Notes: generated from the letters alone by a model not told the origin. A stretch of 64,000 nt of DNA from Chloroflexia bacterium (GCA_036399775.1 DASWMJ010000096.1:69665-133664); one strand, 5' to 3'; positions 1,571-60,088 are shown, counted from the stretch's first letter. A program made the numbers and translations.

Positions 1571-2764
1571 TCAAGCCTGATATATCTCCATCGCCCCGGC
1601 CAGGCCAGCGCCAGCCTCGATGCTATGACCTTGCGCCTTGAGGATTTGCTCTAGCGCGGCGAGTAGTTGCAGCACGAACTCCTGCTGCGAGCCGTAGCCC
1701 ATCAGCCCCACGCGCAGGAGTTTGCCCTTTAGCGGGCCGAGTCCGCCGCCTACCTCTATACCGTGCTCATTCAGCAAGGCTGTTCTTATGGCGGCTTCGT
1801 CAAGGCTGCCGGGCAATTTGACGGCGTTGAGCGGCCACAGGCTGATTTCCTCGTCCGGTAGAAAGTCCAGACCCAGGCCCTCTATGCCTGCCCGGAAGGC
1901 GCGATGGTTGAGATGGTGTCTATGCCATCTCTCCTCCAAACCTTCTTCGTGGAGCAGGCGCAGGGCGGTGTGCAGGGAGTAGATGAGCGGCGCTGAGATG
2001 GTGTGATGGTACTGGCGCTCATCCCAGTACTTCGACAGCAAGACGGCATCGAGGTAGAAGGTTTGCAGAGGGGTATTCCGGCGGCTCGCTTTCTCTAATG
2101 CCCGGTCGTTCATTGTGAATGGCGCGAGGCCGGAGGGCGCGCCCAGGCACTTCTGGCTGCCACTATAGCAAACGTCTATGCCCCACTCGTCCACGCGCAA
2201 GGGATGGCCCCCAAGCGAGGTAACGGCATCTACCAACATGAGAGCGTCCACCTCATGCGCCGCCCGGACGATCTCCGTCAGGTCCTGGCACACCCCCGTA
2301 GAGGTCTCGGCATGCACAGCGCACACCACGCGCGGGCGCGCATGCCTTATCGCGTCGCGCATTTGCTGTGGGTCAAGCGCGGTGCCCCACTCGGCGTCAA
2401 CTCGCGTCAGCCTCCCTCCCAGGCGCTGCACTATCTGGCACATGCGGTCGCCGAAATAGCCCGCGACCCCAACAACCACGCCATCCCCCGCCTCGATGCT
2501 GTTCGCAAGGGCGGCTTCCATACCCGAAGTGCCCGTGCCGGAGAGCGCCAGCGTAAGCCTATTCTTCGTCTGAAACACGCCCCGCAACATATCCTGTAGC
2601 TCCCCCATCATCGCCAGCAACGCGGGGTCAAGATGTCCCAACGGCGGCAGCGCCAGCGAAGCAAGCACCTCCGGGTCAACCTCGCTAGGCCCCGGCCCCA
2701 GCAGGAGCCGCTTCGGAGGTCGCGTCGGGGCGACGGCACTAGCAGACGTATTCTCAATTGCCAT
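1571..2764 (-). CDS. class V aminotransferase, alanine-glyoxylate/serine-pyruvate aminotransferase type
   Basis: 397 aa, LLGPGPS N-terminus and SGSQKCLGAPSG PLP-lysine region typical of AGXT/SPT. Sits immediately downstream of glcF. Confidence 0.8.
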   Translation of the reverse strand: MAIENTSASAVAPTRPPKRLLLGPGPSEVDPEVLASLALPPLGHLDPALLAMMGELQDMLRGVFQTKNRLTLALSGTGTSGMEAALANSIEAGDGVVVGVAGYFGDRMCQIVQRLGGRLTRVDAEWGTALDPQQMRDAIRHARPRVVCAVHAETSTGVCQDLTEIVRAAHEVDALMLVDAVTSLGGHPLRVDEWGIDVCYSGSQKCLGAPSGLAPFTMNDRALEKASRRNTPLQTFYLDAVLLSKYWDERQYHHTISAPLIYSLHTALRLLHEEGLEERWHRHHLNHRAFRAGIEGLGLDFLPDEEISLWPLNAVKLPGSLDEAAIRTALLNEHGIEVGGGLGPLKGKLLRVGLMGYGSQQEFVLQLLAALEQILKAQGHSIEAGAGLAGAMEIYQA

Positions 2765-2779
2765 GCGTTACCTCCTTAC

Positions 2780-2903
2780 GAGGGATCAGGGGTCAGGGAT
2801 CAGGGATCAGGGGTCAGGTGATGAGTACTGGGTGTTGGAAGTTGGACGTTGGACATCAAGGCCTATTAAGGCTGATCCCTGACCCCTGACCCCTGATCCC
2901 TCG
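2780..2903. repeat. palindromic heptamer-repeat element (GGGTCAG/GGATCAG)n ... (CTGACCC/CTGATCC)n
   Basis: Five tandem 7-mers, a 55-bp core containing (GTTGGAN)n, then the reverse-complement 7-mers. Intergenic between the aminotransferase and glcF, extending into the glcF 3' end. Confidence 0.7.
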
Positions 2904-4424
2904 TATAGACATATCGAGTATTTCGACGGGGTGCAGCACCTTAAGCGTGTGGCCCAGTCGGCTGGCGGTGCTTTGGATTTGGAGCGTGCAGCCTGGGTTG
3001 GCGCTGGCTACTATCTGCGCGCCTGTGCTCAGGATGTGGCGGGTTTTGCGCTCACCAAGCTCGGAGGCAGGCTTTGGCTCTACGAGGTTGTATATGCCCG
3101 CGCTGCCGCAACATATGTCGCCCTCCGGGATAGGCACCAGTTCAACGCCCGGTATGCTTTCCAGCAGGCGGCGAGGCTGGCGGCGCACACCCTGGGCATG
3201 CGCGAGGTGGCAGGCGTCATGGTATGCGATCTTCGCCTTTAGCGGCTTGCGAGGGGCGACAGGACCTAGCTCGTCCAGTAATTCGGTAACGTCCCTTACT
3301 CGCTCTGAAAACCGGACGGCGCGCTCTGCGAACTGCGGGTCGTCACGTAAAAGGTAGCCGTATTCTTTCATGCTGGAACCGCAGCCCGCCGCGTTGACCG
3401 CTATATAGTCCAGTTTGCATTGCTCGAAAGTGCGGATAAGCTCGCGGGCGTACCTCCTGGCGTCTTCCTCCAGTCCCGCATGTAGAGCGAGTGCCCCGCA
3501 ACACCCCTGTGTAGGTGGATCATACACTTCGCACCCCTCCGCCGCCAACACTCGTATCGTGGCCGCGTTCACTTGCGAGAAAAATACGCGCTGCACGCAG
3601 CCGGTGAGCAGGCCAACCCGCGCCCGCCGCTTGCCTCTCGCGGGCATAAATACAGGTATGCGCCGCCTCAACCCTTTCAGCGTCACCGGCGGCATCAAAG
3701 CGTGGAGGCTCGCCAGCCTGGGCGGCAGCTTCGCTAGCAAACCCGTGCGCGTCACCAGACTTTGCATACCGCTCCTCTGGTAAAGCAGCAGGGGCAGGGC
3801 AAGGAGGCGAAGGCGCGCAGGGTGGGGGAAGAGCGCGAAGAGCATCGCGCGGAAAAGCCGGTCGGAGCGCGTGCGTGGGTAGCGTCGCTCGATCTGCTGG
3901 CGAGTAGACTCTATCAGCTTATTGTACTGCACCCCCGAAGGGCAGGCAGTGATGCAGGCCATACACCCCAGGCATTGGTCGAAGTGGCGCACGTAGGTAT
4001 CGGTCATGGCAACCTTGCCCTCGTTGCCCACCTTCATCAGGTGTATGCGCCCGCGCGGCGAGTCCATCTCCTCTCCCCACAGGACATAGGTGGGGCAGGT
4101 GGGCAGGCAGAAGCCGCAATGCACGCAATCGTCTATCAACGCCGGCGACGGGGGATTGTGTGCGTCGAATGCGGAATGCGGAGTGCGGAATGTGGAGTGT
4201 TGGGAGTTGGAGGCTAAGCGGAGTAGAAGATTGTCCTCGGAGCTGTGTATGGCTTCGGCGGCTGAGGTTTCTGTTGCTGCCCCTATATCCTGGGGGCCGC
4301 TCAGCACGCTCGTTTCGCCCGCAGCTTCAGCGGCTGCGTGCATGTGTGCGGGCAGGCCACCCATCTCTCGCTCATAAGTGGGGGAGGCTTCCTGTTGCTG
4401 CTCTTTGTCTCGCGCTTGCTCCAT
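2856..4424 (-). CDS. glcF: glycolate oxidase iron-sulfur subunit GlcF, with an unusually long low-complexity N-terminal extension
   Basis: Two CxxCxxCxxxCP ferredoxin motifs (CVHCGFCLPTCPTY, CLGCMACITACPSG) plus C-terminal CCG domains. Lies 10 bp downstream of the glcE stop. About 95 residues precede the first Cys motif, versus about 25 in E. coli GlcF. Part of that extension is encoded by (GAATGCG)n heptamer repeats, and the C-terminal residues RGIRGQGSGISLNRP are encoded by (GGGTCAG/GGATCAG)n repeats. Confidence 0.8.
   Translation of the reverse strand: MEQARDKEQQQEASPTYEREMGGLPAHMHAAAEAAGETSVLSGPQDIGAATETSAAEAIHSSEDNLLLRLASNSQHSTFRTPHSAFDAHNPPSPALIDDCVHCGFCLPTCPTYVLWGEEMDSPRGRIHLMKVGNEGKVAMTDTYVRHFDQCLGCMACITACPSGVQYNKLIESTRQQIERRYPRTRSDRLFRAMLFALFPHPARLRLLALPLLLYQRSGMQSLVTRTGLLAKLPPRLASLHALMPPVTLKGLRRRIPVFMPARGKRRARVGLLTGCVQRVFFSQVNAATIRVLAAEGCEVYDPPTQGCCGALALHAGLEEDARRYARELIRTFEQCKLDYIAVNAAGCGSSMKEYGYLLRDDPQFAERAVRFSERVRDVTELLDELGPVAPRKPLKAKIAYHDACHLAHAQGVRRQPRRLLESIPGVELVPIPEGDICCGSAGIYNLVEPKPASELGERKTRHILSTGAQIVASANPGCTLQIQSTASRLGHTLKVLHPVEILDMSIRGIRGQGSGISLNRP
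4167..4212. repeat. (GAATGCG)n-derived heptamer array inside the glcF coding sequence
   Basis: Six to seven degenerate 7-mers (GAATGCG GAATGCG GAGTGCG GAATGTG GAGTGTT GGGAGTT) lying in-frame in the N-terminal extension of GlcF. Confidence 0.65.
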
Positions 4425-4433
4425 CTGGCCTGC

Positions 4434-5708
4434 CTATATCCCTCCAACAAACCTTCCGGGGTTGAGCGTGCCGTTCGGGTCGAACTGCGCCTTTATCCTG
4501 CGCATCAAGCCCACGCCCTCGCCCGCATCACCCCATGCATCAATCTGCGAGTGCACCTCTGCCGGAGCGCGCCACACTACAAGATTGGAGCCGCACAGTT
4601 CAGCTTGCCGTCTCAAGTCTCGCAACAGCCTCACTGCCTCACCTGTGGACGGGTCGTGCCAGCGTAGGAGCGCATGGCCGTGTCCCACGTGGGCGCGTAC
4701 CGAGATCTGCGTGTTGGTCTCTCTTGTCGCCTTCTGTGCATTTTCCACCAATTTTGGCAATTCTGTCACCGGCGCGATGAGGCGGGCAAGCACGGTGCCC
4801 TCTGTAGTATGCGCTATAGTGTCAAATTGCCGCCAGAGCGCCTCTTCCTCCCCGCCAGCCAGGGTTTGCGATTTACTACCCAGCAGTTCCGCGACACGAT
4901 CTGCCTGGGCCTCAACCGAGCCGGGCGAGCCTTCAAAGCGCACGGCCAATACAGATTGCGCGCTATCGCCCTCACTAAAATAATCAATACTGGTGGGCAC
5001 AAGTGTGGAGTCGAGGATAACTGCAACCGCTTTGCCCACATCCATTACCGGCATCTCTCGACTTACAACTGTAGCCGACGCCGAGGGCAATGGATAGAGC
5101 CGAAACGTTGCCTCCACAAGCACGCCCAACGTGCCGAGCGAACCTGTGAGCAACTTGGGGAGATCGTAGCCTGCGACGTTCTTCACCACCTTGCCGCCCC
5201 CCTTAGCCACAACGCCGTCGGCCCGCACGAACGTAACCCCCAGGATGAGGTCTCGCACGCCCCCATAACGGATGCGCCTGGGGCCGCTGTCGCTGGTGGC
5301 TACCAGCCCGCCTACCGTGCCCGGCACCGGAGGGTCAATCGCCAGGAACTGTCCCGCGCCCCCCAGCGCCCCCTGTAAGTCGCTCAATCGCACGCCCGCC
5401 TGCGCGGTGACGGTCATATCGCCCGCCGCGTGCTCTACTATTTTCGACAGGTTGCCCAATTGGAGCAGGATGTCGCAACCTGTAGGCGCGTTGCCCCTAT
5501 CCAGCTTTGTGCGCGTACCGCAGGGCACCACCTTCAGCCCCCGTCTATTCGCCCACGCAAGCAGCCGCGACACCTCCTCAATATTACCGGGCATTACGGC
5601 CACCGAAGGCACGACACCCATTACAGCCTCAGCCTCGATTGCCTGGCGCACATCTTTTATACCAGATTGCCCGGCAACTTCCTCCGCGTCAATCCTGCGT
5701 GTCGTCAC
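4434..5708 (-). CDS. glcE: glycolate oxidase FAD-binding subunit GlcE
   Basis: FAD_binding_4 type N-terminus (KVVPCGTRTKLDRGN). Positioned between glcD and glcF. Confidence 0.75.
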   Translation of the reverse strand: MTTRRIDAEEVAGQSGIKDVRQAIEAEAVMGVVPSVAVMPGNIEEVSRLLAWANRRGLKVVPCGTRTKLDRGNAPTGCDILLQLGNLSKIVEHAAGDMTVTAQAGVRLSDLQGALGGAGQFLAIDPPVPGTVGGLVATSDSGPRRIRYGGVRDLILGVTFVRADGVVAKGGGKVVKNVAGYDLPKLLTGSLGTLGVLVEATFRLYPLPSASATVVSREMPVMDVGKAVAVILDSTLVPTSIDYFSEGDSAQSVLAVRFEGSPGSVEAQADRVAELLGSKSQTLAGGEEEALWRQFDTIAHTTEGTVLARLIAPVTELPKLVENAQKATRETNTQISVRAHVGHGHALLRWHDPSTGEAVRLLRDLRRQAELCGSNLVVWRAPAEVHSQIDAWGDAGEGVGLMRRIKAQFDPNGTLNPGRFVGGI

Positions 5709-9033: not shown

Positions 9034-10049
9034 CATGCCAGCGCGTTTTCTACATCAATGCGGTTTTGGTCTACCAGGGAGCGAAATGCTTCTATCGTGG
9101 CGCGCACGCCGTCGACCAGGGGGGTTTCGGGCGCATCAGGCAGCAATCCTTTCAGGGTAGCGCTGTCTAGCTCGTCGGGAAAGGGGAGGCGCGTTTCGGG
9201 GAATGTGATGCGTCCCTGCATTTCGGGCGCGACCTCTTCAATCGCGGCCACTACCTCCTGCACGCTCACTTTGCTGCCGCCCAGGTTGATTACCCTCGCG
9301 CCCTCGAACGGCACCGCAGCCAGGGCGATGAGGGTGTTCGCGGCATCATCTCCCCACTGGAAGTTGCACCGCCCGCCGTACGTGATGGCGTAGTCGCGGC
9401 CCAGGGCTGCGGCGAGCATCGCTTTGGTGGGCGACGAAGTGACACCCCTATCGCGTCCCAGCCCGTAGATTACGTAGGGGCGCACGCCGATGCTCGTTAC
9501 ACCATTGTCCTGGGCGTAGATGCGTGCCGTGCCCTCGTTGGCTTGCTTGTAGACGCCGTAGTGGGTGGCGGGTGCGAGCGGCGCATCCTCCGGCACAGGG
9601 CCAGGCTCGTAGAGTTCGGCGGGACCGTACACGGCGGCAGAGCTTGTGTATATGACGCGCTCCACCTGCGCCGGGTGGCGGGCCGCTACCTCAAAGACGT
9701 TCACGGTGCCTGTGACGTTCACCTGCGCGCCCAGGATGGGGTTGGCCTTGCAAAAAGGCACCTGTAGCGCGGCCAGGTGGATGATATGCGTTATACCCTC
9801 GCCTATCACCACGCGCTCGACAGTCTCGTAGTCGGTGATGTCGCCCTGCTCGATAGGCACCTGGGCGATCTCCTCATCGCTCATGAGCAGCTTGAGGCGC
9901 GACGGGTCGGCGCTCAGGTCGAAGGCGACTACCTTCTCACCCTGCCGCAAAAGGTTGTGTATGGTCCATGCACCCAGGCACCCCATCGCGCCTGTTACCA
10001 TGTACGTGTTGCTCATTCTTGCTCCGGGTGTTTGCTCTTCGATTGGCAT
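9033..10049 (-). CDS. NAD-dependent epimerase/dehydratase family protein
   Basis: VTGAMGCLGAW Rossmann motif and YxxxK SDR-type catalytic region. The true start may be the internal Met 11 codons in. Confidence 0.75.
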   Translation of the reverse strand: MPIEEQTPGARMSNTYMVTGAMGCLGAWTIHNLLRQGEKVVAFDLSADPSRLKLLMSDEEIAQVPIEQGDITDYETVERVVIGEGITHIIHLAALQVPFCKANPILGAQVNVTGTVNVFEVAARHPAQVERVIYTSSAAVYGPAELYEPGPVPEDAPLAPATHYGVYKQANEGTARIYAQDNGVTSIGVRPYVIYGLGRDRGVTSSPTKAMLAAALGRDYAITYGGRCNFQWGDDAANTLIALAAVPFEGARVINLGGSKVSVQEVVAAIEEVAPEMQGRITFPETRLPFPDELDSATLKGLLPDAPETPLVDGVRATIEAFRSLVDQNRIDVENALA

Positions 10050-10179
10050 TGCCCAGCGACTGAAGTCGCGGGCAACGATTACAAAGTCGCCCTGCGGCGA
10101 CTACTCTATCCCTCATAGTCCGCGTAGGCGGACTTCGTTTTCGTTGCCCGCGACTTCAGTCGCTGGGCAACATTCGCCC

Positions 10180-11265: not shown

Positions 11266-11820
11266 TTACAAATCTGCCCTGGCCTTGAATTCTTCAACAG
11301 TCAGCCCAAGAATGAGATCGTCAAAGTACTGGCCTTCGGTGTATATCATCCGGCGCACACGGCCCTCAAGCTGGAAGCCGAGGCTCTCGTGCAGACGCAA
11401 CGAAGTCTCATTGAAGCTGTAGGTATGCACGGTCGCTTTCTGGTAGCGCAACTCCTCAAAATAGTATCGCAAAATGAGGGTGATAGCCTCCGAAGCGTAA
11501 CCTTTACCTCGATGATCCTTGAGTATGCTCACGCCATAACTGAATGTCCCATTCCTGGGATCGCACGCATGCGTGTTGATGGAGCCTACCATCTCGCCCG
11601 CGAGGGTCTCTATTACGAAGAAAAAAGTATCGTCTGCTGCCTCCTGTGTTGACAGCTTCTGCGCCCACTGCTTGACAGCTTCCCGTGATTGTGGAGGCGG
11701 AACACTGTAGAGATTCCTGGCTGTCTCGCTATCAAGATTCCAGTCCCAGAAAGCTTGCCAATCTGACGGCTCTATACCACGAAGCCTGATATGCTCACTT
11801 TCCCAGAGATTACCTTTCAT
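11266..11820 (-). CDS. GNAT family N-acetyltransferase
   Basis: GNAT motifs (GYASEAI, acetyl-CoA binding region). Start placed at the internal Met (MKGNLWESEH) giving a 4-bp ATGA overlap with the upstream GNAT. The longer 268-aa ORF overlaps the neighbour. Confidence 0.65.
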   Translation of the reverse strand: MKGNLWESEHIRLRGIEPSDWQAFWDWNLDSETARNLYSVPPPQSREAVKQWAQKLSTQEAADDTFFFVIETLAGEMVGSINTHACDPRNGTFSYGVSILKDHRGKGYASEAITLILRYYFEELRYQKATVHTYSFNETSLRLHESLGFQLEGRVRRMIYTEGQYFDDLILGLTVEEFKARADL

Positions 11821-12404
11821 TATGGGACATAGCCCAACCTGGCTTCCAGGCTGGCTTTGACCTGGGGCCATTCTTCGTCTGTGATGCTGAACATTACGCT
11901 GTCGCGGAAAGTGCCGTCGGGGAGAATTATTTGCTTCCGCAAAGTGCCCTCGCGTATCGCGCCCAGCTTTTCCATAGCTCTCTGGCTCTGCAAGTTGCGC
12001 CTGTCCGTTTTTAGTTGCACCCTTATTGCTCCCAGCGTCTCGAAGGCGTGGCGCAGCATGAGGTACTTGCACTCCGGGTTCACCTGTGTGCCCTGGTACG
12101 GCCTTGCGATCCAGGTGTAGCCTATTTCAAGGCCGCGATGCTCCGGGCGGATGTCGAAGTAAGATGACGTGCCTATGGGCTGTCCTGTTTCCTTAAGTAT
12201 CATAGTGAATGGGACCCGCCCGGGCATATCCAGGTTACGTTGAACGTACGCCCTGAAGGCTTCAAGGGTCGTATCCTCAAGCACTACGGTCGTATATTTG
12301 AAGATGACCGGCTCCGCCACCCGCCATAGGCCCTCTGCGTGGCTCATGCTCAGCGGCTCAAGACGCAGAGTGCGCCCCTCTATTGTCACAGGTTCTACTC
12401 GCAT
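11820..12404 (-). CDS. GNAT family N-acetyltransferase (RimL-like)
   Basis: 194 aa with typical GNAT fold motifs. Tandem with the previous GNAT. Confidence 0.7.
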   Translation of the reverse strand: MRVEPVTIEGRTLRLEPLSMSHAEGLWRVAEPVIFKYTTVVLEDTTLEAFRAYVQRNLDMPGRVPFTMILKETGQPIGTSSYFDIRPEHRGLEIGYTWIARPYQGTQVNPECKYLMLRHAFETLGAIRVQLKTDRRNLQSQRAMEKLGAIREGTLRKQIILPDGTFRDSVMFSITDEEWPQVKASLEARLGYVP

Positions 12405-12457
12405 AACGTCATATCTATAACAAAGTCGGAATGCTTGGGGTTCAGCAACCCCTGTAC

Positions 12458-12746
12458 CCTTGTCATTCTGAGCGCAGCGAAGAATCTCGTCCCTAGCTCA
12501 TCCTTTTGCCTCAGTCTCTCCCCTTGCGTCCCCAGCATAATACGCGAGGGACGAGATTCTTCGCTTCGCTCAGTACAGCACTAACAAAGAAATGTCTGCG
12601 TAGGGGCGACCCGGTGGGTCGCCCGGGTGGGGATGGCGAACCAACTTTACGCGTGACCCTGGCAGGGCGACCCACCGGGTCGCCCCTACCTTACACATTT
12701 TATTCCTGGACATAACTTTGTTAGTGCTGTACTCAGAATGACAGGG
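12458..12746. mobile_element. triple-nested MITE-like insertion
   Basis: Outer element with 37-bp TIRs (CCTTGTCATTCTGAGCGNAGCGAAGAATCTCGTCCCT). Its right TIR is interrupted after CGCTCAG by an element with TIR TACAGCACTAACAAAG flanked by a 5-bp duplication CTCAG. That element in turn carries an 88-bp GTAGGGGCGACCCGGTGGGTCGCCC...CGCCCCTAC palindromic element (12601-12688). Confidence 0.7.
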
Positions 12747-54512: not shown

Positions 54513-55553
54513 GTGGCACTCAGAGACGAGATATTAGAGCAGCCGGGTGTCTTGCGTGGCTGGATAGAGACGCAGATGCAAACGGCGTCCGGTATAGCCG
54601 AGGCTATCCTTTCGCGCGACGTGCAATACATCTTCCTGGCGGCGAGGGGTAGCTCAGACCACGCAGGAGTGTACGCGCAGTACCTTTTTAGCGCGCGGAA
54701 TCGCCTGGCGGTAGCCCTGGCAACGCCGTCGCTGTTTACGATGTACCCTCAGTCGCCCCGGCTGCACAACTCGCTCGTGATCGGCATATCGCAGTCCGGC
54801 CAGTCTCCCGATATAGTGAGTGTTATCGCCGAAGGAAGACGACAGGGCGCTATTACCCTGGCTATCACCAACGACTCTGACTCTCCGTTGGCGCGGGCCG
54901 CCGAGCTTACCCTGGGGTTACACACAGGGCCGGAGAAAGCCGTGGCCGCCACCAAGACTTACACCGCACAGCTGTTGGCGCTGGGTGCGCTCTCTGTTGC
55001 CCTGGCGGGAAACAAAGAAGCTGACTTGGCTGACCTGGCCGGGGTGCCTGACGCAGTACAATCGGCGCTGGAACTGGAGCCGGAAGCCGAGCGAATCGCC
55101 GGAAGACACGCTTTAATGGATCACTGTGTGGTGCTGGGGCGCGGTTACAACTATGCCACGGCCCAGGAATGGGCGTTGAAGCTCAAGGAGCTTGCATACG
55201 TATTTACGGATGTTTACTCTACGGCAGATTTCCGGCACGGGCCGATAGCGATAGTCGAGCCGGGTTTCCCGGTGCTGGCCGTAGCTCCGCAAGGGGCGGT
55301 CCTGGCGGACCAGTTAGCCTTATTCTCAAGGCTGCGCGACGACTACAAGGCTAAACTGGTAATCATCTCGGACAGCGACCAGGCGCTGTCCCTGGGGGCT
55401 GAGAAGTTACGCCTGCCACCTGGGCTGTCCGAGTGGCTGACCCCAATCGTTAGCATCGTCCCGGCCCAGTTGTTCTGCTACCATCTCACCCGCGCTAAGG
55501 GTTACGATACCGAGAACCCTCGCATGCTGCACAAGATAACTCTGACCGAATAG
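54513..55553 (+). CDS. SIS-domain sugar isomerase, GlmS-like glucosamine-6-phosphate deaminase (NagB-II/AgaS type)
   Basis: Two SIS domains (GISQSGQSPD, second SIS with SDSD). GTG start after an AAAGGAGA RBS. Position after nagA. Confidence 0.7.
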   Translation: MALRDEILEQPGVLRGWIETQMQTASGIAEAILSRDVQYIFLAARGSSDHAGVYAQYLFSARNRLAVALATPSLFTMYPQSPRLHNSLVIGISQSGQSPDIVSVIAEGRRQGAITLAITNDSDSPLARAAELTLGLHTGPEKAVAATKTYTAQLLALGALSVALAGNKEADLADLAGVPDAVQSALELEPEAERIAGRHALMDHCVVLGRGYNYATAQEWALKLKELAYVFTDVYSTADFRHGPIAIVEPGFPVLAVAPQGAVLADQLALFSRLRDDYKAKLVIISDSDQALSLGAEKLRLPPGLSEWLTPIVSIVPAQLFCYHLTRAKGYDTENPRMLHKITLTE

Positions 55554-55624: not shown

Positions 55625-55653
55625 TTGCAAAAATCATAGACATTTAGTAGAGT
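55625..55653 (+). promoter_or_regulatory. putative sigma70 promoter for the MBL-hydrolase pair
   Basis: TTGCAA (55625-55630), 17-nt spacer, TAGAGT (55648-55653), about 110 bp upstream of the first MBL gene. Confidence 0.4.
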
Positions 55654-55766
55654 GAAACTTGACGCAGAGGCGGCATAAGTGCGAAACTCTACAACGCATT
55701 CAGCAAACAGGAAACCCTTAGCGTCCATTGGCTCGGTCACAATTTGAACACGAGAGGAGGAGTAAT

Positions 55767-57287
55767 ATGCCAGAGTTCGCTTGTATTAACTACGACCTGG
55801 TAGGAATTTATCGTACCCCTGAACGTGAGGGGTATGCTGGAACGCTTGCCTGGGGAGATACGGTCGAGGTACTGGAAAAAACGAATACATACTTGAAGGT
55901 ACCATACTATTTGCGCAACAAGGATGGGAGCCTGCAATCTGAGCCTTCTCCCTGCTACATTATCCCCAGGAAGGTTACGCCTGATGAAATCATCGTTGCT
56001 CCCGAAGAGAATAAGGTCTTGCGTATGGACTTCGTTGATGTGCAACAGGGTGATGGCTCCATCGTCCAGACCCCAAAAGGGAAGACGATAATCATCGACG
56101 GGGGGATGGGCAACCTCTTCGCACGTTATCTTGCCGCCAGATACCGGGGTAGCTCCAAAGACAATCCCCAGCAGTTCGACTGCATCGTTGTGACGCACGG
56201 GGACGCGGATCACTTCGCCGGCCTCACAGCCATCCATGCAACGGAGAAGAATGACTCAAAGAGTAAGCGCCTATTCATGTATCCGAGACGTGTTTATCAC
56301 AATGGCCTTGTCAAGCGCCCTGGCAAAATGAACGGGCAGGACCTTACTCCCAAAGAGATGTTTGGGGCCACCGTACCCATAGGCAATCGAACCATCATCA
56401 CCGATCTAGTGGACGATCTCACGCAGACGCCGGATACGGTGATGAACGAGCCATTTCGCGCCTGGAAAAAGGCGCTCTCCAGTTACCGGCAACGCTATGA
56501 AGGTCCGTTCGGACCTATGGATATTCGGAGGCTGGCCTACGGAGACGATGATGCCTTCAGCTTCCTCTCAGATGAGGGGATAAAGGTGGAGGTCCTTGGC
56601 CCTATACCTTATGAGAAAGATGGCATATATGGGTTACCTTTTTTGGGTGCGCCCTCGCGAAACCCACGCCTCGAAGATGAGTCTTTGGACCTATCGGACG
56701 AAGTCTTCAAGGGTACGGACGATTCGCATACTATCAACGGCCACTCGGTGCTCCTGAGGCTGACGTACGGAAACGTAAGATTACTGTACACGGGTGACAT
56801 GAACAACCAGAGCGAAAGGACCCTGGTCAGGCAGCATAAAGAGAAGCTCAGCGCAGAAGTTATGAAAGTGCCTCACCACGGTTCGCATGATTTCTCTGCT
56901 GCTTTTCTCAGGGCGGTTTCACCGCTGGTATCCGTGGTCTCTTCGGGTGACGAGAATGAAAGAGTCGAATATATACACCCTCGGGCCAATCTGATGGGAG
57001 CGCTTGGTCGATACTCAAGGGTCTCCGAACCGCTGGTGTTCGTAACAGAACTGGTCGCCTTCTTCAAGTATGAGGGCTATGCAAGACCCGTATCCGACGC
57101 TGATGCACAGGAGCGAGGTAGCTTTATTGCATTCAGCAGGTCGGCTTGGGGGATCGTTCGCGTACGGACTGACGGACATCGTCTCTTTGTTTACACGGAC
57201 AGCGGTAAGCGAGGGCAGTTTGAAACCTATGCCTACACAATAGAGGATGGAGCAGTACCCCAGGCGACCAAGGTGCGAGCAACGTGA
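55767..57287 (+). CDS. ComEC-type MBL-fold metallo-hydrolase with an N-terminal SH3-like domain
   Basis: GAGAGGAGGAG RBS. Motifs VVTHGDADHFAGL (HxHxDH) and LxLTYGNVRLLYTGD...KVPHHGSHD, typical of the ComEC/Rec2 beta-lactamase-like nuclease domain. N-terminal approximately 70 aa (CINYDLVGIYRTPEREGYAGTLAWGDTVEVLEKTNTYLKV) resemble bacterial SH3. GC about 50% versus 62% flanking. Confidence 0.7.
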   Translation: MPEFACINYDLVGIYRTPEREGYAGTLAWGDTVEVLEKTNTYLKVPYYLRNKDGSLQSEPSPCYIIPRKVTPDEIIVAPEENKVLRMDFVDVQQGDGSIVQTPKGKTIIIDGGMGNLFARYLAARYRGSSKDNPQQFDCIVVTHGDADHFAGLTAIHATEKNDSKSKRLFMYPRRVYHNGLVKRPGKMNGQDLTPKEMFGATVPIGNRTIITDLVDDLTQTPDTVMNEPFRAWKKALSSYRQRYEGPFGPMDIRRLAYGDDDAFSFLSDEGIKVEVLGPIPYEKDGIYGLPFLGAPSRNPRLEDESLDLSDEVFKGTDDSHTINGHSVLLRLTYGNVRLLYTGDMNNQSERTLVRQHKEKLSAEVMKVPHHGSHDFSAAFLRAVSPLVSVVSSGDENERVEYIHPRANLMGALGRYSRVSEPLVFVTELVAFFKYEGYARPVSDADAQERGSFIAFSRSAWGIVRVRTDGHRLFVYTDSGKRGQFETYAYTIEDGAVPQATKVRAT

Positions 57288-57311
57288 GTTACGGAGCGTA
57301 AGGTGGACACT

Positions 57312-58634
57312 ATGCAACCACAAGCAACGCTAGTGGTCAAGGTCAGGATGTACCGTCAGGGGTTCGGAGACTGCTTCTTGCTCTCATTCCTGAGGGGCGG
57401 CCAAACCTTCAATATGCTCATCGACTGCGGAGTGCTCGAGAATACCGAGAAAAAGGCGGCTATAATGCGGTTGGTAGCCCAAGACATCAAGGTGGTAACT
57501 GCCAATCGTATCGACCTCCTTGTAGCTACGCATCGGCACTGGGACCACGTGTCGGGGTTTCTTCAAGCGCGAAGGGTGTTCGGGAGTATGGAAGTGGGGC
57601 GAATATGGATGCCCTGGACGGAAAATCCGATCGATCAGCAAGCCGCCAGGATGTGGAAACGTAGTCGTGCTAACCTACTGCTAACGCGGAAGTTGATTAC
57701 CAAGAGCGAATCGAAAGAAGCGCAGGTGCCTTCAGTTCATCAGGGTGGGAAGACGGAGAAAATGGAGGACCTACGTGCTGGGATTGACTCTATCCTAAGC
57801 TTCTCCATGGACACTCATCCTGATGCAGGATCTACGCGCGAGGTGGTTCGCAACGACCCGAGGCAAGCACTAGCCTATGTTTCGACGCTCGGGCAAGCGC
57901 CTTTGTGGTATCTTGAGCCAGACGTATCCACAGAGGCTGCGCCGCTCACCCTTCCGGGCCTGGAGGGTGTTCGCATCTACGTGCTTGGACCCCCGAGAGA
58001 TATGATGCTGCTTAGCCACGACTATCCGAACCAGTGGGACGCGGAAGATACTATCTATGGCCTCTCCGATCTAATGAAGGACAGTGAGGATAATAAGCTC
58101 AGACGGGCGTTCAGGCGTGCTCTGTCGCTCGACTCGGTTGTGAACAACACCAGCCTGGCTTTGGCGATTGAGTTAACTGAAAGTGGCAAGGTGCTGCTCT
58201 TCCCAGCGGACGCTCAGATAGGCAATTGGGAGTCCTGGAGCAACCTATCGTGGAGGGTGCGAGCCGCAGATGGCTCTTCATGGGTGGTGCGCATCGAGGA
58301 TCTATTGAGTCGTACTGTGCTCTATAAAGTAAGTCATCATGGTAGTCACAATGGGACGTTGCGCCGACGCGGGCTAGAGCTGATGAACCACACGGATCTG
58401 GTCGCTATGGTCCCTGTAGACTTGGAGACCGCCGCTGAGCGGCTTTGGTGGCGAATACCCGAGGCTCAGCTGATGAATAGTCTGAAAGTACATACACGGG
58501 GGCGTGTTATCCGATCCGACACAGGGTTGCCTGACCGAGATGACCTCAAGAGGCTGTCATCGCAAGAAACAGCAGCATTTATAGCTGCGACTCGACAGCA
58601 AGATATGTGGGTCGAACTTACAATACATGAATAG
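57312..58634 (+). CDS. ComEC-type MBL-fold metallo-hydrolase, second paralogous copy
   Basis: AAGGTGGA RBS. VATHRHWDHVSG (HxHxDH), LALAIELTESGKVLLFPADA and KVSHHGSHNG motifs. Same architecture as the upstream gene but diverged, 441 aa. Confidence 0.7.
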   Translation: MQPQATLVVKVRMYRQGFGDCFLLSFLRGGQTFNMLIDCGVLENTEKKAAIMRLVAQDIKVVTANRIDLLVATHRHWDHVSGFLQARRVFGSMEVGRIWMPWTENPIDQQAARMWKRSRANLLLTRKLITKSESKEAQVPSVHQGGKTEKMEDLRAGIDSILSFSMDTHPDAGSTREVVRNDPRQALAYVSTLGQAPLWYLEPDVSTEAAPLTLPGLEGVRIYVLGPPRDMMLLSHDYPNQWDAEDTIYGLSDLMKDSEDNKLRRAFRRALSLDSVVNNTSLALAIELTESGKVLLFPADAQIGNWESWSNLSWRVRAADGSSWVVRIEDLLSRTVLYKVSHHGSHNGTLRRRGLELMNHTDLVAMVPVDLETAAERLWWRIPEAQLMNSLKVHTRGRVIRSDTGLPDRDDLKRLSSQETAAFIAATRQQDMWVELTIHE

Positions 58635-58663: not shown

Positions 58664-58692
58664 TTGACATGCGAGCAAATGTCTGCTACACT
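58664..58692 (+). promoter_or_regulatory. sigma70 promoter of the T-box leader
   Basis: TTGACA (58664-58669), 17-nt spacer, TACACT (58687-58692). Confidence 0.7.
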
Positions 58693-58699
58693 GGGCGAA

Positions 58700-58982
58700 A
58701 TTGAATAGCGGCGACGAGCCGCATGCCCGCGTCGAAGTGGAATAGTAGCTACATCAAGGATTTGCAGCGAATCGGGAGATGGTGCAAGCCCGGTAGACCT
58801 GGCGTAGCGAACCGGCCATGGAGCGGTCCGCCGAAGAAAGCCCAACGGCGAGCAAGTAGGATGGAGTGGTTGGTCACCACGCACAAAATAACCACGAGCG
58901 GTCACAGGCCAAAAATGTGACAATTAGGGTGGTACCGCGGGAGCCATGCTCTCGTCCCTTGCTTTGGGACGGGAGTTTTTTG
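58700..58982 (+). promoter_or_regulatory. T-box riboswitch leader RNA (tRNA-sensing transcription attenuator)
   Basis: Canonical T-box sequence AATTAGGGTGGTACCGCG at 58923-58940. It is immediately followed by an intrinsic terminator (stem CTCTCGTCCC / GGGACGGGAG, 58949-58975, then TTTTTTG), and the T-box 3' half can alternatively pair with the terminator 5' arm to form an antiterminator. Leader of about 283 nt between promoter and ATG 59015. Possible specifier GAA-GAA-A or AAG/AAA near 58833-58839. Confidence 0.75.
58949..58982 (+). terminator. intrinsic terminator of the T-box leader
   Basis: 10-bp stem (one G-U) CTCTCGTCCC / GGGACGGGAG with a 7-nt loop and a TTTTTTG tract. Confidence 0.7.
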
Positions 58983-59014: not shown

Positions 59015-60088
59015 ATGCAAGTAACGCTGGGCAAGATAGCCTCGGTGACGGCGCGGGTGAGACTGCCCCACCAGGTGGAGATAGGCGATTACGTCTGCGC
59101 AGAGCGCGGCGCGGTGATAGTGGTCGAAGCTCTTGAAGAGAAGTCGGTGTACGGAGAGCTTGAGCTGCTCGGCGGCAGGATGGCTCGCATCATCAAGGGC
59201 GACGTGATGGCGGGCGTGCTGGGCGAGCGCCAGGCCCTCAAAGGTTTCGTGGGCCACATCCCTGAGCGCATAGAGCCGGGTGACACTCTCCACGTCCTGA
59301 ATATGGGTGGGGTCATAGGGCTGTGTAGCTCCGCCAACACCGATTTCGGCCAGGCGTTGCGGGTGCGCGTGCTCGGTTCGGCCATAGTTGACGGCGAACC
59401 TGCCAGCATCGCCCGCGACGCGCTCCCCTGGCGCAACTCCCTCCACAGGAGCGCGCCTATCATCCTCGTCTCCGGCACCTGCATGAACGCGGGCAAGACT
59501 ACAGCGGCGTGCGAGAGCCTACGCGTGCTGTCGAGCAGGGGGTACCGGATCGCAGCCGCCAAGCTCGCGGGCGTTGCCACTCAGCGCGACCTGCTGAATA
59601 TGCAAGATCACGGCGCGATAGCGGCGCTCTCATTCAGCGACGCGGGCCTCCCCTCCACCACCGGCACCGATAGCTGCTTGGTGCCCGCCGCCAAAGGCGT
59701 GCTGGCTGCCCTCAACGCCTCCCAGCCTGACGCCATAATCGTGGAGTTCGGCGACGGTATCATGGGGCACTACGGCGTGGATATACTCCTGCGGGACGCC
59801 GAATTGATGGGCCACGTGCGAGCGCACATCCTCTGCGCCAACGACCTTGTCGCCGCGTGGGGCGGACTGCGCTACCTCGAAGGGATGGGCGTGCGTGTAG
59901 ACTGCATATCAGGCCCGGCCACCGACAACACGGCGGGCGTAGATTACATCAACAAGCATTTCAGCATGCAAGCCGCCAACGGTCGCACGCAACCCACTCT
60001 CCTGGCCGACATGGTGGAAGCCCTGGCCTTCCCAGGCAACTCCCATTCGATGTCTGGCAGAATGATAGAAGATAGGGACGTGGCGTAA
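59015..60088 (+). CDS. P-loop protein, DUF1611-like (possible DgcN-type N-acetyltransferase), first gene of the T-box operon
   Basis: GGGAGGAGG RBS and ATG 59015. The upstream ATG of the ORF track lies inside the terminator hairpin. P-loop-like VSGTCMNAGKTT. Stop overlaps the argC start (ATGA). Family assignment from recall only. Confidence 0.45.
   Translation: MQVTLGKIASVTARVRLPHQVEIGDYVCAERGAVIVVEALEEKSVYGELELLGGRMARIIKGDVMAGVLGERQALKGFVGHIPERIEPGDTLHVLNMGGVIGLCSSANTDFGQALRVRVLGSAIVDGEPASIARDALPWRNSLHRSAPIILVSGTCMNAGKTTAACESLRVLSSRGYRIAAAKLAGVATQRDLLNMQDHGAIAALSFSDAGLPSTTGTDSCLVPAAKGVLAALNASQPDAIIVEFGDGIMGHYGVDILLRDAELMGHVRAHILCANDLVAAWGGLRYLEGMGVRVDCISGPATDNTAGVDYINKHFSMQAANGRTQPTLLADMVEALAFPGNSHSMSGRMIEDRDVA

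Follow-up and report, generated by a model that had tools for sequence, protein, structure and literature searches.

Tandem ComEC-type metallo-β-lactamase-fold genes in a Chloroflexia bacterium: a candidate reduced variant of a protease-coupled nuclease theme

Two ComEC-type genes in a variable genomic slot

A 64-kb window from a Chloroflexia bacterium (the whole stretch of DNA analysed, 64,000 nt of a 229-kb contig; GCA_036399775.1 DASWMJ010000096.1:69665-133664) carries two co-oriented open reading frames (ORFs) between the end of a SIS-domain gene (55553) and the promoter of a T-box leader (58664). Sizes, GC values and neighbours of these two genes refer to this window. Gene A (55767..57287, plus strand) starts with ATG at 55767 and encodes 506 amino acids (aa). 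Gene B (57312..58634, plus strand) starts with ATG at 57312, with an alternative GTG start at 57303, and encodes 440 aa. An initial annotation, made from the sequence, had described two adjacent, co-oriented genes of 507 and 441 aa; the two ORFs are confirmed, with the sizes corrected to those given here. Two database proteins match these products exactly: P0001, from a 229-kb Chloroflexia MAG contig and annotated as 'MBL fold metallo-hydrolase [Chloroflexia bacterium]', for A, and P0121 for B.

The 24-nt spacer between the genes (57288..57311, plus strand) contains the ribosome-binding sites GGAG and AAGGTGGA, and no terminator was found within it, implying that A and B are co-transcribed. 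Gene A is itself preceded by a Shine-Dalgarno sequence, AGAGGAGGAG (55753..55762, plus strand), which on reading the sequence is strong. The site before A bears out the earlier description of strong ribosome-binding sites. The promoter that had been assigned to the pair is less secure. The putative TTGCAA-17-TAGAGT (55625..55653, plus strand) does exist in the 213-nt spacer after the SIS gene, but it is weak: it agrees with the consensus at 8 of 12 positions, and a promoter scan, which reported no more sites in this region than in shuffled sequence, did not call it.

Both genes are lower in GC than their context, as had been claimed, at 52.7% for A and 54.3% for B rather than the value of about 50% first given. 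The mean for the other 52 window genes is 59.4 ± 3.9%, and the surroundings of the pair lie at about 59-64%. At third codon positions (GC3), A and B stand at 59-60%, versus 71 ± 9% for the other genes. The GC and GC3 values of the pair are the lowest among all window genes of at least 300 aa; they lie only about 1.3-1.7 standard deviations below the window mean, a moderate deviation.

Relatives that share the upstream genes lack A and B. Upstream of A is an operon encoding GH1, ROK, GH3, NagA-like amidohydrolase and SIS proteins, and the SIS-domain gene (54513..55553, plus strand), the last of this nag-type operon, forms the left boundary. The complete sugar operon is found in two relatives, L097 and L098, with 81-88% nucleotide identity, and in both the synteny ends at the SIS stop: nucleotide identity is 86% up to 55552 in L097 and 84% up to 55553 in L098, and no similarity to either was found beyond these positions. 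Within 8 kb, neither locus contains A, B or the T-box operon. The slot is instead occupied by a DNase_II-family gene (9049-10098, minus strand) in L097, the closest relative with a SIS protein 90% identical, and by a PpoB2/tyrosinase pair in L098. Because different genes are found at the same slot in relatives, the slot is a variable breakpoint and A-B is lineage-specific. Consistent with this, relatives of the SIS protein reach 85-92% identity, as against a best of 54% for A and about 39% for B. Horizontal acquisition had been proposed for the pair. Its lineage-specific nature agrees with that proposal, but there is no tRNA in the window and no integrase, transposase or recombinase in the flanks of A-B, and the only flanking repeats are of 12-19 nt, at chance level.

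Both proteins have the metallo-β-lactamase (MBL) fold, and both exceed the gathering score of Pfam Lactamase_B (PF00753; 22.7 bits), A with 55.6 bits and B with 26.7 bits. AlphaFold models were built from 30-sequence alignments and reached a predicted local distance difference test score (pLDDT) of 82.9 and a predicted template-modelling score (pTM) of 0.85 for A, and 85.9 and 0.89 for B. When these models were searched with Foldseek, the best PDB match of both was 9ic4, the beta-lactamase-like (MBL) domain of ComEC (A, E 4.8e-13, TM-target 0.76; B, E 8.6e-10, TM-target 0.69). A profile of the A family also recovers ComEC chains among PDB sequences (E 3e-20) through two blocks, FVDVQQGDG...THGDADH aligned to ComEC residues 4-80 and INGHS...GD...KVPHHGS aligned to residues 148-222. 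Between the two blocks, A holds about 93 additional residues. The ComEC-type assignment made at the outset thus holds for both proteins, and so does the KV(P/S)HHGSH signature, which alignments and sequence place in A and in B.

The HxHxDH motif that had been ascribed to both proteins is present in B only. There, motif II is the canonical HRHWDH (57531..57548, plus strand) and motif V is HHGSHN (58335..58352, plus strand), both located by alignment and sequence reading. In A, motif II is HGDADH (56196..56213, plus strand), the HxDxDH of ComEC type, invariant in 30 family members, and motif V is HHGS (56874..56885, plus strand) within KVPHHGSH, aligned to FKVPHHGS of ComEC 9ic4. An invariant HN at residues 178-179, in YHNG, is the candidate for ComEC motif III in A. 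The C-terminal domain of ComEC is a Mn2+-dependent DNase that carries HxDxDH, with Asp in place of His, together with the motif III Asn (PMC8579336). Given its match to ComEC, its HxDxDH, the candidate motif III HN and FKVPHHGS, A is predicted to have Mn2+-dependent DNase chemistry. B resembles the ComEC-type nuclease domain in fold only, its motif II being HRHWDH and not HxDxDH; it keeps all family-invariant catalytic residues (H74, H76, D78, H79, D300, H342 and H343). From these sequence features, nuclease activity would be expected of both proteins. BLASTP aligns A and B at 28% identity over 187 C-terminal residues (E 1e-4), and the two appear to be distant homologues and not recent paralogues.

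Apart from the MBL domain, A consists of a putative SH3-like N-terminal beta-barrel (about residues 1-70) and a small C-terminal beta domain. The SH3-like barrel, already suggested by the initial annotation, is plausible rather than proven: the model has six short strands at residues 4-66, with weak Foldseek matches to SH3b-containing NlpC/P60 proteins and a sub-threshold Pfam match to the NHase_beta_C barrel. The 19-residue Kyte-Doolittle average peaks at 1.31 in A and 1.09 in B and reveals neither a transmembrane helix nor a signal-like N-terminus in either protein, in keeping with the lack of a signal peptide and membrane channel first reported. By their sequences, both proteins appear to be standalone and cytoplasmic.

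The ComEC resemblance could be taken to mean that A and B are fragments or paralogues of the competence protein itself, acting in DNA uptake. The MBL domain is truly of ComEC type, and some A-family members are named 'ComEC/Rec2 family competence protein' by NCBI. We consider this reading hardly tenable. Against the ComEC models, A scores only 57.9 bits with TIGR00361 (cut-off 190) and 55.3 bits with NF008580 (cut-off 969), its match being limited to model positions 559-653, the C-terminal MBL part; B matches neither model, and no Pfam competence domain matches A or B. Neither protein has transmembrane segments, a signal peptide, a competence channel or an OB-fold, and the flanks are unrelated to competence. 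In structure, both proteins match the C-terminal MBL domain of ComEC/Rec2 best (9ic4; Silale et al. 2021, PMC8579336), and A has its diagnostic HxDxDH and FKVPHHGS, with the invariant HN as candidate motif III, but the two differ from ComEC as soluble, cytoplasmic enzymes without membrane channel or OB-fold domain. They also differ in having extra residues between motif II and the Asn block (about 93 in A and about 130 in B), in the SH3-like N-terminal domain that A adds and in the canonical HxHxDH of B.

The B family and its upstream protease partner

B belongs to a family with at least 5,500 matching clusters at 90% identity. A hidden Markov model (HMM) of the family, searched against 1.84 billion cluster representatives, returned 1,785 at E<=1e-30 and 4,519 at E<=1e-3, which puts the family at about 1,800-4,500 clusters at 50% identity, or about 1-2.5 per million protein clusters. 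The B of the window matches this HMM with 530 bits (E about 1e-154 to 1e-159), a somewhat circular value, as it is among the 30 sequences from which the HMM was made. A BLAST search, which is independent of the profile, finds its nearest full-length relatives at 37-39% identity over nearly the whole length.

Members of the B family are coupled to a protease gene. Directly upstream of B, on the same strand, a gene that we call Z is found in all nine independent B-family loci examined (L004, L005, L006/7, L008/9, L010/11, L099, L100, L031 and L022), at a spacing that ranges from a 14-nt overlap to a 49-nt gap and that often makes the two translationally coupled. Z encodes a protein of 612-667 aa (~640 aa), except in L004, where it is split into ORFs of 866 and 308 aa. 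It matches no Pfam, NCBIfam or PADLOC family. Its invariant H198, E199, H202 and E225, an HExxH followed by a downstream Glu, align to the thermolysin active site, and Z is thus predicted to be a gluzincin-like metallopeptidase with a large domain of no known function. A possible origin of Z as a diverged homologue of A was considered and rejected (BLASTP E 0.4). A further protein, P0429, combines a B-family MBL (residues 1-468) with a subtilase of the Peptidase_S8 family in one fusion. Taken together, Z in nine of nine loci and the S8 fusion indicate that 'MBL plus protease' is the constant theme of the B family, with the protease class swapped. A term search of Kaur et al. 2020 (PMC7159879) found no zincin-MBL system matching Z-B.

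Several of these loci have noteworthy surroundings. In L004 (5907-9978), three consecutive Z-like ORFs precede B, Z being duplicated or split, and the neighbours encode an astacin, a VIT-vWA protein and a 1,678-aa kinase-RHS protein. The Z-B pair of L010 adjoins a gene for a 6A-like E2-E1-JAB fusion with another MBL gene, a GajB-like helicase gene, an HTH/M78 pair and an HNH gene. On its 21-kb contig (JGI 3300042731), P0429 is accompanied by genes for a TIR+caspase (Peptidase_C14) protein, a TIR-nSTAND-WD40 protein and an M23 peptidase.

The window departs from this theme in two respects. First, Z was not found in its 64 kb by tblastn or by the Z profile, and no protease gene adjoins A-B. Second, B itself is shortened. 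In the family alignment, two insertion regions lie between motif II and the NNTS block. In the insertion-1 columns, the window B has 90 residues, compared with 59-90 in other B proteins; they include a lineage-specific extension, SKEAQVPSVHQGGKTEKMEDL (57711..57773, plus strand), identified by alignment in a low-confidence part of the model, where residues about 137-180 have a pLDDT of 45-79. In the insertion-2 columns (site at 58059..58094, plus strand, placed with alignment A2 and four added Z-linked B proteins), the window B has 18 residues, versus 65-84 in the 29 other members of A2 and 50, 54, 77 and 83 in the added proteins from L022, L031, L100 and L099, respectively. The window B is the sole one of 34 compared B proteins without this conserved insertion of ~60 residues, and with it has lost the FFAA, PFD and WRRID positions, which are nearly invariant in the family. 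It is also the only B examined that has no protease.

A mechanistic context for these two losses comes from recent work on defence systems. Tuck et al. 2025 (Science, PMC12799240) described nucleases of the ComEC-like MBL type that accompany Hachiman, AVAST, Lamassu and DRT. In such gated pro-nucleases, access to the active site is closed by two insertions relative to ComEC; a partner protease, trypsin-like or a caspase, cleaves these insertions, and the nuclease thus released destroys DNA (PMC12799240; bioRxiv 10.64898/2026.08.25.746987, a 2026 preprint on Avs2-trypsin-MBL). HamM requires cleavage of both (PMC12799240). The loss of Z together with insertion 2 in the window would be exactly what such a gating model predicts, in this single case.

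The initial annotation knew of no named system of this kind. The B family does fit the nuclease-protease pro-enzyme pairs described in 2025 (PMC12799240), of which it is a candidate member. Like HamM, the Avs1/Avs2-associated and Lamassu/DRT-associated MBL proteins and CanC, B-family proteins are ComEC-like, carry insertions and are coupled to a protease. In contrast to them, the partner is a thermolysin-like gluzincin or a subtilisin rather than a trypsin or caspase, the protease gene precedes that of the nuclease, and sensor genes of Avs, Hachiman, Lamassu or DRT are not adjacent; the window in addition has no protease and a deleted insertion 2.

Searches of defence libraries give a similar picture of kinship without membership. 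Neither A nor B is named above threshold by PADLOC or NCBIfam. The PADLOC models LmuA, RTasMBL (PDLC03805) and Avs1a match both proteins weakly, at E 1e-6 to 1e-19 with scores well short of the NCBIfam cut-offs, and these models derive from Lamassu, DRT and AVAST, systems with gated pairs in PMC12799240. With LmuA (PDLC03854), A scores 65.9 and B 64.6 bits, a partial match whose best stretch covers about 90 of 345 model positions; with Avs1a (NF041809), the scores are 61.2 and 33.9 bits against a cut-off of 420. The flanks of A-B contain no SMC or reverse transcriptase gene, so that the pair does not qualify as an MBL accessory of Lamassu or DRT, and no STAND NTPase partner, as in AVAST type 1, lies beside genes whose flanks are sugar-catabolic and T-box/arg-type. 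The 6A-MBL protein (NF058524) is an MBL-fold effector of the same broad clade, and a 6A-like gene with an MBL gene stands beside Z-B in L010 as described above; yet A and B score only 31.1 and 20.3 bits against its cut-off of 220, and no E1, E2 or JAB gene lies beside A-B. The second-best fold match of B is the phosphorylcholine esterase Pce/CbpE of Streptococcus pneumoniae (1wra, 2bib; E 5e-6), which has the HxHxDH, Zn-type motif II in common with B (PMC8579336). Unlike the cytoplasmic B, it is a secreted choline-binding surface enzyme, and identity is only 11-12%.

The losses in the window could also mean that B is a non-functional relic of a Z-B module and A an unrelated neighbour with no joint function. 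Z is missing, a conserved segment of ~60 residues with nearly invariant positions has been deleted, identity to the nearest full-length relatives is only 38-39%, and the locus sits at a synteny breakpoint. For a relic, B is nevertheless well kept: its ORF is intact, the family-invariant catalytic residues are retained, the model is a confident one (pLDDT 85.9, pTM 0.89), and both the ribosome-binding site and the operon linkage are preserved. We therefore regard this explanation as quite improbable.

The A family, its companions and the flanks of the pair

A belongs to a different family, with at least 2,700 matching database clusters, nearly all of about 510 aa and about 50% identical to A, in Planctomycetota, Proteobacteria, Cyanobacteria, Bacteroidota, Nitrospirota, Acidobacteriota and other phyla. 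The closest database match is 54% identical, and an alignment of 30 members has a mean column identity of 72%. For the neighbourhood analysis, 88 A loci were assembled (62 after dereplication at 85%); the sources included a metagenome scan with the family alignment and a single-protein query of genome contigs, which gave 5 loci.

A normally appears to be a solitary gene. When the 669 ORFs predicted in these loci were clustered all against all, no conserved partner emerged, and the ORF clusters around A genes mirror synteny among related genomes only; with no neighbour family conserved beyond synteny, we infer that A usually stands alone. Its 140 immediate neighbours are for the most part ordinary genes of metabolism or housekeeping, with scattered defence-like matches, and pooled Pfam and PADLOC scans found no defence-island enrichment among them. 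Scans for both families found no relatives of A or B in viral contigs.

Two candidate partners of A attracted attention. In L001 (Pseudoduganella lutea), a protein with DUF2278 and a lamin-tail domain (LTD) follows A (11585-12640). As a conserved partner, DUF2278 was rejected: it is a full neighbour in 1 of 88 loci, with a weak C-terminal partial match in L044, and the literature search gave nothing. PADLOC and NCBIfam scans of this DUF2278-LTD neighbour and of other partners found no above-threshold defence family. In one A subclade, a protein of 650-830 aa is encoded directly upstream of A (L031, 2547-4883; L043, 2380-4887; L068, 2645-4591). It has no Pfam or PADLOC match, and may be a clade-specific partner.

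A recurs, all the same, in the company of Z-B and of patatin genes. The order is A->Z->B in L031 and patatin->Z->B->MBL->A in L022, while in L080/L090 it is Z<-|A->patatin, with Z divergent from A. A patatin of the same family (45-53% identity) also precedes a Z-B pair in L099 (patatin->Z->B). Among the 140 immediate neighbours of A, two B genes were seen, in addition to that of the window, versus about 0.0004 expected by chance, because the B family accounts for only about 1-2.5 per million clusters.

Two of these loci have further features. In L022 (2-6500), five genes lie on the same strand, encoding a patatin (fragment), a Z-like protein, a B-like MBL, a third MBL and A, so that three MBL genes are consecutive; the third MBL, of 434 aa, has only a weak match to the LmuA model. 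In L099 (3096-10454), patatin-Z-B is flanked by genes for peptidoglycan hydrolases, PG_binding_1+Peptidase_M15_4 and Muramidase+PG_binding_1, a context that hints at a lytic or prophage-like setting.

These associations do not trace back to one cluster. In a neighbour-joining tree, the four Z-B-linked A genes fall into four separate clades, each with nearest relatives that lack Z-B, and a single clade descending from one ancestral cluster was therefore rejected. The window B is closer to the B of plain Z-B pairs than to A-linked B, with 29% identity to the B of L031. The four separate A clades, together with the position of the window B, indicate that the associations arose independently, which favours a shared function or a shared type of neighbourhood over one inherited operon. 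With three independent arrangements, a loose functional link of A with Z-B and patatin seems likely.

A dedicated A-B system, as initially proposed with two paralogous nucleases, has to be weighed against these data. In such a system, A and B might form a heteromer, or A might replace the protease as the regulatory partner of B. The tight, operon-like layout, with its 24-nt spacer, ribosome-binding sites and no terminator, and the common compositional signature would suit it, as would the tandem MBL genes of L022 (B-like -> X -> A), and the loss of Z and insertion 2 from B could signify a switch of partner. Partner statistics point the other way. B lies directly downstream of A in 0 of the 88 other A loci, and A directly upstream of B in 0 of 9 independent B loci, all nine of which are coupled to an upstream protease; the pair is not a conserved one. 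The nearest relatives of the window B (37-39% identity) all have Z, and it is nearer to the B of plain Z-B pairs than to that of L031. By this evidence the A-B pairing is a one-off, and we think a dedicated two-component system rather unlikely.

A further alternative is that A and B are ordinary phosphodiesterases without a role in conflict, serving cytoplasmic DNA or nucleotide turnover, repair or, like Pce, head-group hydrolysis as esterases, and joined in a variable slot. The mostly metabolic or housekeeping neighbours of A, which include two LigD_N genes (the phosphoesterase domain of DNA ligase D), fit such roles. So do the identity of about 50% that the A family keeps across phyla, unlike fast-evolving immune genes, the rank of Pce as second-best fold of B, the DNase_II-family gene in the L097 slot and the failure to find either family in viral contigs. 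This alternative has more difficulty with the consistent protease coupling of B, including the subtilisin fusion among TIR, caspase and STAND genes, with the defence-island context of L010, with the repeated, independent placement of A beside Z-B and patatin, and with the homology of A and B to defence-associated MBL models of PADLOC. We judge it unlikely, while giving it some weight.

The flanks of the pair, with the GH1-ROK-GH3-amidohydrolase-SIS operon upstream and a T-box leader downstream, agree with the initial description of a catabolic GlcNAc operon and a T-box-regulated biosynthetic operon. The right boundary (58664..58976, plus strand) is formed by the T-box promoter, leader and terminator. 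The promoter is TTGACA-17-TACACT (58664-58692, plus strand), the leader (RF00230) extends over 58723-58962 on the plus strand, and its terminator lies at 58948-58976 on the same strand. An Rfam scan of the whole window at gathering scores gave no match. With 91.7 bits (E 7e-21), the leader falls below the gathering score of 93, so that a default Rfam scan misses it and an E-value threshold reveals it. On its 3' side, the specifier loop of Stem I has the sequence GAA-CCG-G, which suggests a proline specifier (CCG), or CGG/Arg if the register is shifted; a proline specifier would be unexpected, as the operon contains ArgC-like and ArgD-like genes. The T-box is followed first by a gene (59015-60088) for a 357-aa protein, which contains the P-loop-like motif GTCMNAGKT and matches no Pfam family at E<=1e-5. 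This gene shows translational coupling to the ArgC-like gene, whose ATG at 60088 overlaps the stop of the former.

The locus as a reduced protease/pro-nuclease variant

We propose, with a probability of about 55%, that the window locus is a lineage-specific acquisition in which a reduced variant of the protease/pro-nuclease theme, an orphan B, came to lie beside a normally solitary A. The initial observation of this locus is partly confirmed: it was right for the most part, but erred on the motif, on the GC value and on the promoter. Its interpretation is supported in part, though not in the reading as a novel system of two paralogous nucleases.

The acquired segment would span about 3.1 kb with its two co-transcribed genes. 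A and B would be phosphodiesterases of the ComEC clade that act in the cytoplasm and depend on metal ions, most likely as DNases, and would be drawn from two different, widespread families and not forming a dedicated pair. By analogy with HamM, Avs-MBL and CanC, a B-family enzyme would be made as an inactive pro-nuclease, with the active site blocked by its insertions; once its partner protease had cleaved these, it would degrade DNA, following an abortive-infection logic. On the same analogy, a defence role may be supposed for the family. Given that the protease is absent and insertion 2 deleted, the B of the window would be an ungated or otherwise-regulated derivative, or a remnant. The repeated, independent adjacency of A to Z-B and patatin suggests that all three may belong to one pool of cell-dismantling or conflict effectors.

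Several points weigh against this proposal. The link between the loss of Z and the loss of insertion 2 is drawn from one case. Because both insertions of HamM need to be cut, a B that retains insertion 1 and has no protease might be inactive. As the window covers 64 kb of a 229-kb contig, a protease might act in trans. The mostly ordinary neighbours of A raise the prospect that A has a non-conflict role. Finally, none of A, B and Z reaches a curated defence-family threshold in PADLOC or NCBIfam.

A more ambitious version of the proposal would see in A-B a working, protease-independent derivative of an undescribed cassette of several effectors, Z + B + A + patatin. In it, B would have lost the insertion-2 gate and come under the control of A by way of the SH3-like domain, so that the two make up a novel module of two nucleases. 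We hold this to be improbable. As a reduced version of the theme, which we consider the most likely nature of the locus, the window B is of interest in its own right. Having lost both the protease and one candidate gate insertion, it represents a natural 'experiment', through which the gating hypothesis can be put to a direct test.

A more interesting lead is to be found beyond the window, in the widespread and unannotated gluzincin-MBL (Z-B) module with its recurrent companions A and patatin, whose loose but recurring association hints at a shared pool of effectors. It was only in 2025 that ComEC-like pro-nucleases activated by proteases came to be recognised, and their partners were trypsin and caspase. 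If our interpretation is true, Z-B and the S8 fusion would extend the principle of the protease-gated pro-nuclease to two more protease classes, and to phyla of soil and fresh water, among them Acidobacteriota and Chloroflexota.

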